From: Escherichia coli
Lineage (GTDB): Bacteria; Pseudomonadota; Gammaproteobacteria; Enterobacterales; Enterobacteriaceae
DNA length: 64,000 nucleotides
Assembly: GCF_050920415.1 (NCBI RefSeq)
Contig: NZ_CP169309.1
Direction: 5' to 3' (one strand)
Shown: in pieces, positions 52,801 to 55,800 of the stretch
How the letters are laid out: each line of letters opens with the position of its first letter
Position numbering within the stretch: position 1 is the stretch's first letter
Made by a program: the position numbers

Positions 52801-55800
52801 GCACCAGAACGCAGAACGTCAGCAGAGAAAGTGATTCGTGCGGCTGGTAGTTTACCTCTCCGCCAGTATGTTTCGCTTTTATGGCTACGCCAAAGATACC
52901 ATCTTCTGCTGTGAAATATGCCTCCTGAGCAATAATACTCTCGATATGGTCTGGCGTAACGCGCGGCGCGGCTAAACCTTTAGCCTGAATTTCAGATTCA
53001 ATGTCTTTGTCACTCATAGTCTAATCTCACCTTAAAAAAATGCCCGGCGAACCGGGCGAACTGGAAGCAATGAGTTATGCCTTCCGTGGCTGTACTGGTT
53101 TACAGCATGAAGCCATCGCAATGGCGTCCTGCTGTAAAAAGGGCGGTGATAGTCCTTCAAGGGAAACCATCACCGCCAAGCCCCTGGAACTTCTGGCATC
53201 ACGGTCCTTAGGCGTGATTCTGGCGTGGCATGCAGGATTCGAACCTGCGACCGACCGCTTAGAAGGCGGTTGCTCTGTCCAACTGAGCTAATGCCACAAC
53301 GCTGAGAGCACTTAGCCTGTTAAGGCGCCACACTTTGTCGCGGCTCCATAAATGCTCTCATCGTTGCACCCTCGTCTCTTCCGAGGCGTCACACCGAATC
53401 GCCGGGATGGTGAATCCCCGTGCGCGGAATAAAACCGCTCGACTTGCACATTCCGGCTACCTGGTTCGTTTGCCCGAGCAAGGGAGGGTGCCCATTAAAC
53501 GTATCCAGACCGCTATCGGCGCATGTGCCATACGCCGTACTGCTCAAAATAAAATCTCACTCCACCTGTTCAATTTAACGACAAGCCAGTCAGGTTAATA
53601 ACAGGAATGCACTCTCTGCTTACCTGAAAGGTAATAATTCGTGCGTTAAATGTCAACTGTCTACGATAAATAAATCATATGTGGTTAAATTGGTAATAAT
53701 TTAATTGCGTACGGAGTCATTGATATGTGCATGGGTAGCTCACCATCAGTGCCTGCAACACCAGAAGTTCAGGCAGCACCACAGGAGCAGGATGCCGCCG
53801 TTGTTGATGCCCGCGACGAAGAAACACGTCGCCGTCGCGCTGCTGCTGGTCGTAGTTCTACGCTGCTTACCGGTTCTCAGGGTGACACATCAACCGCTAA
53901 TACCAGCGGTAAAACGCTGCTTGGTCAGTAACCGGAGTCATTGAAATGGCGGAAACAACTAAAGAGCGATTGAACAAACAGTTCGCACAACTTGAAAGCG
54001 AGCGTCAGTCGTTCGAGCCGCACTGGCGCGAGTTGAGTGATTACATCAACCCGCGTGGTTCCCGCTTTCTGACTTCTGAGGTCAACCGTAACGATCGACG
54101 CAATACACGCATTATTGATTCGACCGGGACTATGGCGGCGCGCACTCTCGCCAGCGGCATGATGTCAGGCATCACAAGCCCCGCGCGTCCGTGGTTTCGC
54201 CTGGCTACGCCAGATCCTGAAATGATGGATTATGGCCCTGTTAAGTTGTGGCTTGAGGCGGTGCAGAACCGCATGAACGATATGTTCAATAAGTCGAATC
54301 TCTATCAGTCGCTGCCGCAGTTATACGGAAGCCTCGGCACATACAGCACTGGTGCAATGGCGGTACTGGAGGATGACGATGACATCATTCGCACAATGCC
54401 ATTCCCGATAGGCAGTTACTACCTGGCTAACTCACCTCGTGGCAGTGTGGACACCTGTTTTCGCAAGTTCTCTATGACTGTTCGTCAGCTTGTTCAGGAG
54501 TTCGGGCTAAATAACGTCAGCGAATCCGTAAAAAGCATGTGGGAAAGCGGCACCTACGAGAAGTGGATTGAAGTGATGCATTCGGTTTACCCGAACATTG
54601 ACCGCGATACATCGAAGCTGGATAGCAAGAACAAGCCATTCAAATCGGTTTATTACGAGGTTGGCGGTGATAACGACAAGTTGTTGCGTGAGTCAGGATT
54701 CGATGAGTTTCCAATTATGGCTCCGCGCTGGGAAGTTAACGGCGAAGATGTTTATGGATCATCATGCCCGGGTATGCTGGCGCTTGGACCTGTTAAGGCA
54801 TTGCAGCTTCTCCAGAAGCGCAAGTCGCAGTTGATTGATAAAGCCACCAATCCGCCGATGATTGCTCCGACTTCCCTCAAGAATCAGCGCGCCTCCCTTC
54901 TTCCTGGCGACATCACGTATATCGATCAGATTACTGGTCAGGATGGTTTCAGGCCTGCTTATCTGGTTAACCCCAGTACAGCAGATCTGGTGGCAGACAT
55001 TCAGGACACTCGTCAAATCATTAACAGTGCCTACTTTGTCGATCTGTTCATGATGTTGCAGAACATCAATACCCGTTCGATGCCTGTTGAAGCGGTGATC
55101 GAAATGAAAGAAGAAAAACTTCTGATGTTGGGGCCGGTTCTGGAGCGTCTGAACGACGAATGTCTTAATCCTCTCATTGACCGCGCTTTCTCGATGATGG
55201 TGCGTAAAAACATGCTGCCGCCCCCGCCTGACGCGATGGAAGGTATGCCCCTGAAGGTCGAATACATTTCCGTCATGGCTCAGGCGCAGAAGTCTATCGG
55301 CCTGTCCAGTCTGGCGTCTACGGTCAACTTCATTGGTCAACTTGCGCAAGCGAAACCAGAAGCTCTCGACAAACTCAACGTTGATCAGGCAATCGATGCA
55401 TTCGCTGATATGTCCGGAGTGTCTCCAACCGTCATTGTTCCGCAGGAACAGGTTGAGCAGGCTCGCCAGCAACGGGCACAGCAACAACAGCAGCAACAAA
55501 TGATGGAGATGGGGATGGCGGCGGCACAGGGTGCCAAGACGCTAAGCGAAGCTAAAACTTCGGATCCGAGTGTTTTGTCAGCTATGGCGAATGCAGTTAG
55601 TGGTCAGGGTGGGCAATCACAATGACAGATTACGAAGACGATCAACTGAAAGAAGAAAACGCCCGTAAGCAACGTGACATGGCACAACGTGAAATTGATG
55701 ACATTCGCTTTGTCATGAGCAGTGAACAGGGGCGTCGCGTTGTCTGGTCTGTGCTGGAGAAAGGCCGGGTGTTTTCCGCTATCTCTCCGATGGATGCTAT

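Follow-up and report, generated by a model that had tools for sequence, protein, structure and literature searches.

Element E is a conserved, pseudoknotted RNA domain of ~170–200 nucleotides (nt), previously unannotated, that lies at positions 53370-53537 on the minus strand of the stretch of DNA analyzed here (the window, 64,000 nt of an Escherichia coli chromosome that carries a phiV10/epsilon15-type, or Uetakevirus, prophage). It matches no known RNA family and constitutes a new one. That E is an independent structured RNA transcribed from the minus strand is well supported and close to certain. Together with P8, a long hairpin that follows it, E makes up the 5′ part of a portable noncoding module, in which an early promoter is followed by E and P8, then optionally by a tRNA or tRNA-like domain, and finally by a conserved hairpin and a terminator-like hairpin called T1. 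E is the best-conserved part of this module.

The original prediction described a helix-rich leader at 53298-53620, upstream of a phage tRNA, and offered two proposals, a tRNA leader regulated through competing helices and a structured RNA in its own right. The genomic context of E was surveyed in 130 collected loci, which fall into three settings: A, lambdoid phages; B, Uetakeviruses; and C, P1/P7. The second proposal is strongly supported, as the RNA is conserved, covaries, and occurs without a tRNA in 85 of the 130 loci. The first did not hold up, since the competing helix is lineage-specific and the tRNA is a passenger.

A conserved and covarying RNA fold

The fold was assessed in two alignments, one of 43 sequences (A2) and an 85-sequence covariance-model alignment with 76 distinct sequences (A4). 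Five helices (P2, P3, P5, P6, and P7) are backed by both, and a variable helix, P4, comes in addition. In A4, 95.3% of cells are paired and 14 of 27 pairs show compensatory change; the paired share in A2 is 95.9%. None of 500 shuffles of A4 equaled the real pairing and compensation, and register-shifted controls paired in 28–54%. Conservation and covariation were among the checks proposed originally, and homologs show both, those in phages unrelated to phiV10 included. On either strand, the folding energy is just slightly more favorable than for shuffled sequence (z = -2.2 for the RNA strand, -2.9 for its complement) and does not distinguish the strands, so helix-richness alone proves little. 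It is conservation and covariation, not folding energy, that raise E above chance. Many G-U pairs in E would become A-C mismatches on the opposite strand, and every tRNA adjacent to E in the 130 loci shares its strand; the minus strand of the window is therefore the RNA strand.

The 5′ end of E is the 9-base-pair hairpin P2 (53517-53537, minus strand, as are all parts of the module), formed by CGGCGUAUG and CAUGCGCCG around a GCA loop and paired in 97%. P2 is secured by the behavior of its pair 20:32, which is G-C in 39 sequences, A-U in 35, and G-U in one, with no non-standard pair. P3 (53460-53509) has a closing helix UCUGG/CCAGG (53509-53505 with 53464-53460), for which the compensatory variants CCAC/GUGG and CUGA/UCAG are found, and it encloses a variable hairpin with a UCCCUU motif at its apex. 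This apical motif, UCCYUU in its general form, recurs in the loop of T1. Next comes a 19-nt stretch, GGUAGCCGGAAUGUGCAAG (53443-53461), that is mostly unpaired in the supported structure. This 19-mer is invariant in 10 homologs retrieved by BLAST independently of the motif, and it is among the 64 invariant positions that those homologs have in common. P4 (53422-53440) is a hairpin with unconserved sequence (GCGG/CCGC in the window), taken from the fold of the window and recognized by eye in the homologs inspected.

The 3′ half of E contains an H-type pseudoknot (53392-53418), in which P6 (53409-53412 with 53392-53395) pairs with the loop of P5 (53415-53418 with 53404-53407). All four pairs of P5 covary and the helix is paired in 99%. 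In P6, CACC/GGUG changes to AACC/GGUU in 10 sequences from at least some separate lineages, Buttiauxella included. E ends with P7 (53370-53386), a CCUCG/CGAGG hairpin (53382-53386 with 53370-53374) with the conserved loop GAAGAGA and compensatory changes in four of five pairs. P7 had already been pointed out as a CCTCG/CGAGG hairpin, and the other hairpins and oligonucleotides named at that time are likewise found where they were placed.

Two long-range alternatives to this fold were considered. The original prediction set P7 in competition with an 8-base-pair helix between GCACCCTC and GAGGGTGC. The helix is present in the sequence of the window and is lineage-specific; at six of its eight positions, only 8 of 43 homologs have any residue. 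Pairing is 60% in a six-pair segment and 71% over all eight pairs, and register-shifted controls do equally well or better. Because this helix is not conserved, mutually exclusive pairing with P7 is unsupported. The second alternative is favored by RNAalifold and joins invariant segments in competition with P2, pairing GCACAU (53528-53523) with AUGUGC (53451-53446) along with eight further pairs, and 99.2% of cells can form it. Covariation within this pairing was not found, and its variation consists solely of C or U opposite G, which fits both folds, so it is to be regarded as a possible fold.

Searches for a known counterpart were negative. In Rfam 15, the tRNA is the sole match across 52900-53800, at the gathering threshold and even at E<=10, which bears out the earlier impression that the RNA belongs to no known family, and a search of the whole window plus 11 related loci gave no match inside the module. 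No description of E was found in Rfam, the examined genome annotations, or the searchable literature, a coverage that is incomplete, so an earlier description is possible. The 19-mer gave no match in the full-text literature, and E is not described in the literature on put, HK639, phiV10, SfV/ST64B, P1 ban, and structured phage RNAs. Two publications were considered as prior descriptions and set aside: a preprint on Pas small RNAs concerns other loci, and the mEpimmI paper treats other phages, a group with an N-like protein. Elsewhere in the window, Rfam gives full-length matches to ryfA (3492-3796, minus strand; 313 bits) and sroE (16645-16736, plus strand; 110 bits), ordinary features of the E. 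coli chromosome.

The noncoding module around element E

P8 (53298-53366) directly follows E and pairs CAACGAUGAGAGCA with UGCUCUCAGCGUUG below a variable apex. Its arms (53353-53366 with 53297-53310) form ~13 pairs with one A-G mismatch, and the hairpin spans from the CAAC just 3′ of P7 to a GUUG that ends at the +1 position of the tRNA. An 11-base-pair helix ending 6 nt short of the tRNA had been noted in this place; that helix is real and is the core of P8, which is longer and reaches the tRNA itself. A helix of roughly 14–17 predicted pairs is maintained across 13 variants of differing sequence, and the motif of the 3′ arm is found in 78 of 103 downstream regions and in none of the upstream control windows. 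A closing helix of the 5′ flank with the CAAC after P7 was also considered and was dropped, as this CAAC pairs with the GUUG at the base of P8.

The tRNA of the window is tRNA-Arg with anticodon UCU (53221-53297), identified by ARAGORN and by the Rfam tRNA model (72 bits) at the position first given for it. Across the 130 loci, tRNA-Arg lies downstream of E in 28 and tRNA-Ile2 upstream in 17; the loci counted as having no tRNA nearby have none from 400 nt upstream to 700 nt downstream of E. The tRNA is thus an optional passenger in a larger module. A derivation of E from the host argU locus was rejected, since similarity is limited to the tRNA body (86%); the flanks of argU are unrelated to E and its leader is ~30 nt.

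Modules that lack the tRNA have a multibranch tRNA-like domain of 85–200 nt at the exact position of tRNA-Arg, starting at the same GUGG. Among the loci with this domain, equivalent to 53221-53297 of the window, are L004 (2150-2500, minus strand), L005, L008, and L039. In the tRNA-less variants, the domain shows the acceptor-like stem GUGGUG/CACCAC; many of them also have a D-arm-like hairpin and a T-arm-like one (GCCGG-N9-CCGGC) at the corresponding tRNA positions, and an AACCA (ACCA-type) tail. The domain is not called as a tRNA by ARAGORN. Directly 3′ of the tRNA or tRNA-like domain stands a hairpin, AUCACG...CGUGAU (53198-53218), that is conserved in class A and class B modules. Additional RNA elements can be found in series. 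In five loci (L009, L039, L040, L078, and L101), a second recurrent noncoding block (AGCCAUUCAC...GGGACUGGAAGAGUUACCACUUGGAGACGGUCC...) lies between E and the P8/tRNA-like part, which suggests arrays of structured RNAs. The lambdoid contig L030 has two copies of E on the same strand (4793-4972 and 3986-4167, minus strand), ~800 nt apart, the second with substitutions within the otherwise invariant 19-mer (GGAAGCUGG...).

Upstream of E, a -35 hexamer TTGACA (53651-53656) and a -10-like hexamer TACCTT (53628-53633) with a 17-nt spacer resemble a sigma70 promoter. Because this promoter is a match to consensus, the start of transcription near 53620 is a predicted one; counted from there, ~320 nt precede the tRNA, and the length originally claimed for the leader fits. 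The sigma70-like arrangement is kept in related Uetakeviruses: 9 of 12 aligned homologs have a TGACA core at the -35 position, and one more has TGGCA. Of the 104 unique upstream windows from all contexts, 57 contain TTGAC[ACT]-N16-18 followed by a -10 element on the RNA strand; none does on the opposite strand. Such sites on the RNA strand lie at a median of ~70 nt upstream of P2 (~53 nt to a point 17 nt before P2). An operator-like inverted repeat, TTACC-N5-GGTAA (53620-53634), overlaps the -10 region and is conserved in Uetakevirus homologs, and in the epsilon15 record the corresponding divergent region has annotated sites for repressor and IHF; the repeat may bind a repressor. The leader between promoter and E (53553-53619) contains a local hairpin, CCUGUU...AACAGG (53605-53565), that appears to be a degenerate copy of a P8-like hairpin found before E in other Uetakeviruses. 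An "RNaseIII site" annotated on the plus strand of the epsilon15 record coincides with the P8-like hairpin upstream of E.

At the other end of the module is T1 (53136-53177), a conserved terminator-like hairpin, GGCGGUGAUGG...CUAUCACCGCC followed by UUUUUACA. Its motif, GGCGGU...ACCGCC-UUUUUACA, is found in 70 of 94 unique contexts and is common to lambdoid phages and Uetakeviruses. A strong terminator-like hairpin 100–700 nt downstream of E is present on the RNA strand in 67/94 contexts, on the opposite strand in 27/94, and in the upstream control in 12/94. Between the end of E (P7) and T1 there are ~110 to >500 nt, which hold variable inserts, an entire tRNA among them. A short transcript with a conserved seed and a terminator hairpin of its own would be typical of an Hfq-type base-pairing small RNA; the module does have a conserved 19-mer and a conserved terminator, but the two are ~260 nt or more apart inside ~480 nt. 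T1 is followed by T2 (53034-53057), an intrinsic-terminator-like hairpin, GCCCGGUUCGCCGGGC, with seven U after it; its counterpart in the epsilon15 record bears the annotation of a rho-independent terminator.

The cargo behind these terminators is an open reading frame (ORF) of 123 amino acids (aa) at 52646-53017, a member of the Phage_gp49_66 family (Pfam PF13876, E = 2.4e-35). In relatives, this slot holds Tad2-like (Thoeris anti-defense 2, DUF2829) proteins or other small genes. Equivalent slots were compared in L011, L086, L097, and L075, and Tad2-like proteins occur in several relatives, including a P1-like variant.

In the prophage of the window, the module and its cargo lie among plus-strand genes: terS (50409-51083) and terL (51080-52555) on one side, a gp3-like ORF (53725-53931) and the portal gene (53946-55625) on the other. 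The region has 98–99% identity to phiV10 and its relatives, whose records annotate only spurious ORFs across it. An 83-aa ORF on the plus strand (53040-53291), antisense to tRNA-Arg and T1, is the hypothetical protein PhiV10p04 in phiV10 and is almost certainly spurious. In mEp460, the hypothetical ORF gp37 is likewise laid over E.

Distribution and phage contexts

Element E is spread across three unrelated groups of temperate enterobacterial phages. A sensitive BLAST search with a 343-nt region found homologs of 70–83% identity in phages unrelated to phiV10. The lambdoid carriers are cdtI, mEp460, twelve Stx2c-converting phages, Stx2a phages of the WGPS2 type, 2H10, and Ayreon; the rest are P1-like phages including P7 and other Uetakeviruses of Salmonella, Klebsiella, and Enterobacter. 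The exact 19-mer is found in >120 viral contigs and at 22 loci in genomes of Enterobacterales, from Kosakonia, Citrobacter, Klebsiella, Kluyvera, Enterobacter, Buttiauxella, Phytobacter, Pseudescherichia, Ca. Erwinia dacicola, and others. By BLAST, about a third of complete E. coli genomes carry E (1839/5426), at 1918 chromosomal and 554 plasmid places. None of the 40 E. coli genome matches listed has an annotated feature at E.

Two matches come from outside this range. A metagenome-assembled genome (MAG) of Oscillospiraceae has the exact 19-mer (L142, 5592-5610, minus strand) inside an apparent dehydrogenase coding region with no E around it; a few such matches are expected from the size of the collection, so this one is taken as chance. 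A 1.7-kb contig in a "Bacillota" MAG has a full E (178 bits), and the contig is probably mis-binned.

In the lambdoid setting, a cI-like repressor gene and its terminator come first. A pL-type promoter that bears operator repeats is next, and behind it stand E, a spacer, T1, and the early-left genes, among them phrog_204 or phrog_14171, DUF2303/YfdQ, and ParB-like genes. The first genes of pL have no N-like or antiterminator annotation in Pfam or PHROG. In two lambdoid loci, Rfam matches to isrK and the C4 antisense RNA stand beside an antirepressor gene on the pR side (L004, 4847-5035, plus strand; L005, 4777-4965, plus strand); they resemble the P1 immI-type RNA control system and are separate from E.

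In the Uetakevirus setting, to which the window belongs, a divergent operator-bearing promoter is followed by E, P8, tRNA-Arg(UCU) or its substitute, the conserved hairpin, T1, T2, and a small cargo that varies between the gp49/66 family and Tad2-like/DUF2829 proteins. Phage epsilon15 (L002, 2181-2305, minus strand) retains the promoter and P2, but the remainder of E is missing, as is the tRNA; the deletion fuses the apex of P3 to the loop of T1 through a common sequence, UUCCCUUGAUGCU.

In P1, P7, and P1-like phage-plasmids, the ban operon, which C1 controls, contains E between trnI and ban. The copies in P1 and P7 begin directly after the CCA end of tRNA-Ile2. The P1 record, with 535 features, leaves E unannotated. 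An annotated "dicF-like region" is found near the 5′ end of the same operon (L160, 5551-5652, minus strand); the long untranslated part of the ban operon thus contains several RNA elements along with three tRNAs.

Wherever their promoters can be read, copies of E appear to be under control of the immunity repressor. This control is annotated in P1 and P7 and suggested by operator-like repeats in the lambdoid phages and Uetakeviruses. Every copy of E precedes protein-coding genes of an early operon; none was seen as a free-standing gene, and at the great majority of loci E and the next gene have the same orientation. Among the exceptions are L030, L049, L092, L095, and L125, where an opposite-strand gene has been inserted immediately 3′ of E.

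Candidate roles of element E

The role tentatively favored here is that of a cis-acting leader RNA for elongation control of the antitermination type, a functional analog of put; it is plausible but falls short of probable. In its favor are the early-leader position of E in three phage groups, the terminators that follow it, and the lack of an antiterminator annotation in Pfam or PHROG for the first pL genes of the lambdoid carriers. The position of E, its orientation, and its association with terminators are observed; a modification of RNA polymerase by E is conjecture. The derepressed early promoter would fire, and E, transcribed in the leader, would act in cis on the very transcription complex that makes it. 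RNA polymerase could then read through T1, T2, and later terminators to the downstream cargo, which in the window would be the gp49/66-family gene.

The closest functional parallel is with put. The HK022-type put RNA makes RNA polymerase resistant to terminators in cis and depends on the zinc-binding domain of the beta′ subunit. Like put in HK022 and HK639, E is a noncoding structured RNA in the leader of a repressor-controlled early promoter, before terminators and early genes, and both are found in lambdoid phages without a recognizable N. In HK639, which lacks N, a putL-like antiterminator RNA is annotated at the position equivalent to E. The two differ in scale: HK022 put is ~70 nt and the HK639 feature 126 nt, each with two stem-loops, while E has six or seven helices and a pseudoknot. 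The nut site of lambda and E are both just downstream of pL, but E comes without a boxB/N pair. A strict boxA is found downstream of E in only 1 of 103 contexts, beside the terminator of an opposite-strand gene, and a candidate rrn/lambda boxA in the 3′ arm of P8 (UGCUCU...GUUGUGG) was dropped. E thus sits where nutL or putL would be, yet it fails the sequence and structure tests for put and for nut/boxA.

Other phage RNAs offer partial likenesses. P4 CI RNA and the c4 RNA of P1 and P7 (Rfam C4) are early-leader RNAs of temperate phages, as is E, and RNase P excises both P4 CI and P1 c4 from leader transcripts. Similar processing is suggested for E by its junction with a tRNA or tRNA-like domain. 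They differ from E as antisense regulators of ~77–80 nt, and the Rfam matches to C4 and isrK fall elsewhere in lambdoid loci. The stable RNAs C and D of T4 are encoded within a tRNA cluster, and GOLLD and ROOL are large structured phage RNAs of unexplained function that are often beside tRNAs. These come from other hosts, whereas E is smaller, belongs to Enterobacterales, and has a consistent early-leader position; the Rfam models for GOLLD and ROOL gave no match to the E module, and no homology was detectable between E and any of these RNAs, P4 CI and c4 included.

A number of results weigh against antitermination. The covariance model of E gives no match in the HK022 and HK639 genomes, and BLAST of E against the put region of HK639 gives chance matches only; homology of E to HK022/HK639 put is rejected on both counts. 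E is well above put (~70 nt) in size and complexity. T1 is co-conserved with E, and the T1 loop and the P3 apex have UCCCUU in common, so T1 fits a part of the functional RNA rather than an obstacle to be read through. In P1-type loci, a scan 3′ of E across the short gap before ban and into the beginning of that gene found no terminator-like hairpin. P8 directly adjoins the tRNA or tRNA-like domain, an arrangement suggestive of RNase P-type processing that would free a discrete E RNA. Phage epsilon15 is viable despite the loss of most of E, and polar CRISPR interference at trnI and ban in P1 does not reduce plaquing (PMC10695390), which makes E dispensable or accessory under laboratory conditions. 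P1 is itself suspected of antitermination, and an antiterminator protein has not been shown experimentally (PMC10695390).

Several of these points fit better with an alternative judged almost as likely as antitermination, a stable, processed noncoding RNA that is produced at an early stage of lytic growth and acts in trans. An RNA of ~200 nt would be released through cleavage by RNase P at the junction with the tRNA or tRNA-like domain and by RNase III or RNase E in the P8-type hairpins; its single-stranded 19-mer would bind a conserved partner from host or phage, perhaps in takeover of the host or in anti-defense, and T1 would be the end of the transcript. The invariance of the 19-mer in homologs found without relying on it suggests a conserved partner. 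The junctions of the module also agree with processing: P8 meets the tRNA at +1, the tRNA-less loci have a domain with an acceptor-like stem and ACCA-type tail at the same place, and E of P1 and P7 starts right behind a tRNA CCA end. T1 or a replacement terminator is conserved at the end of the module, the serial insertions (the second recurrent domain and the second copy of E) resemble an RNA array, and the co-conserved T1, UCCCUU loop motif, and tRNA-like domain are accommodated more readily than under antitermination. What speaks against a trans-acting RNA is the constant placement of E in early operons upstream of protein-coding genes, mostly co-oriented and never free-standing; P1-type copies also have no terminator of their own, and no complementary target was identified for E. 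A further, improbable alternative is a riboswitch-like or attenuator sensor, in which a ligand, protein, or tRNA toggles two folds to set termination at T1 or processing at P8. E has an aptamer-like architecture, with a multihelix junction, a pseudoknot, and many invariant unpaired bases; the long-range pairing that competes with P2 is formable almost throughout, with variation compatible with both folds; and an invariant AGCGGU in E is complementary, by eye, to the 3′ arm of T1 (ACCGCU or ACCGCC). That alternative pairing nevertheless has no covariation, whereas P2 covaries clearly. T1 is too far from P7, behind variable inserts, for an overlapping expression platform, unlike known platforms, and there are no Rfam riboswitch matches.

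The window by itself would invite a simpler view, in which E has no separate function and is just an unusually long 5′ leader and processing substrate for the phage tRNA-Arg; there E lies directly upstream of the tRNA on the same strand and transcript, and P8 reaches +1. This view is very improbable. It is largely refuted by the copies of E that are conserved without any tRNA and are still the best-conserved part of their modules, and the covariation and near-identical cores of those copies speak against nonfunctional relics. In P1 and P7, E is moreover downstream, not upstream, of a different tRNA, and the leader of host argU is short and unrelated. Scarcely credible is the last alternative, a decayed coding remnant or a DNA-level site such as an origin, attachment site, or packaging site. 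Hypothetical ORFs such as mEp460 gp37 and PhiV10p04 are annotated across or near E. The original statement that the region has no ORF over 24 codons is correct for ATG starts on the minus strand, but once GTG and TTG starts are allowed, there are ORFs of 45 and 52 aa on the minus strand and one of 87 aa on the plus strand, the last starting with TTG. The ORFs are not conserved, the 87-aa and 52-aa ORFs have no PHROG match, and no protein-family match was found. The G-U pairs are strand-specific. The helices are preserved by compensatory changes, and the indels among homologs of E are 1–17 nt and not multiples of three; together with the missing protein-family matches, this excludes the decayed coding sequence that the original prediction had listed as its own refutation. 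No DNA-level function is common to the three genomic contexts.

The likeliest role is a variant of a phage early-leader transcription-control RNA, with a substantial chance that E is new in kind. It is a serious possibility, if short of an even one, that E, P8, the tRNA or tRNA-like domain, and T1 make up an unrecognized class of large modular noncoding RNA locus (~400–900 nt) in temperate enterobacterial phages, made at the onset of lytic growth and with a mechanism that has no described counterpart. Such a locus might yield a processed ribonucleoprotein or decoy RNA against a conserved host machine or defense system, or it might be an RNA-only device for transcription control unrelated to put.

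If E is real and functional, P1, phages of the phiV10/epsilon15 type, Stx2c- and Stx2a-converting phages, and cdtI would all carry a strongly conserved structured RNA that is absent from their annotation. An entry for E in RNA family databases is warranted, as is removal of the spurious hypothetical ORFs that overlie it. The element offers a testable candidate for the expression of the early-left operon in lambdoid phages that lack a recognizable N or put. In the toxin-converting phages (Stx and cdtI), E stands in the early-left (pL) leader beside the immunity region, and in the Uetakeviruses, it is upstream of anti-defense-type (Tad2-like) cargo. Because of these positions, E may affect the expression of virulence and phage-defense traits.

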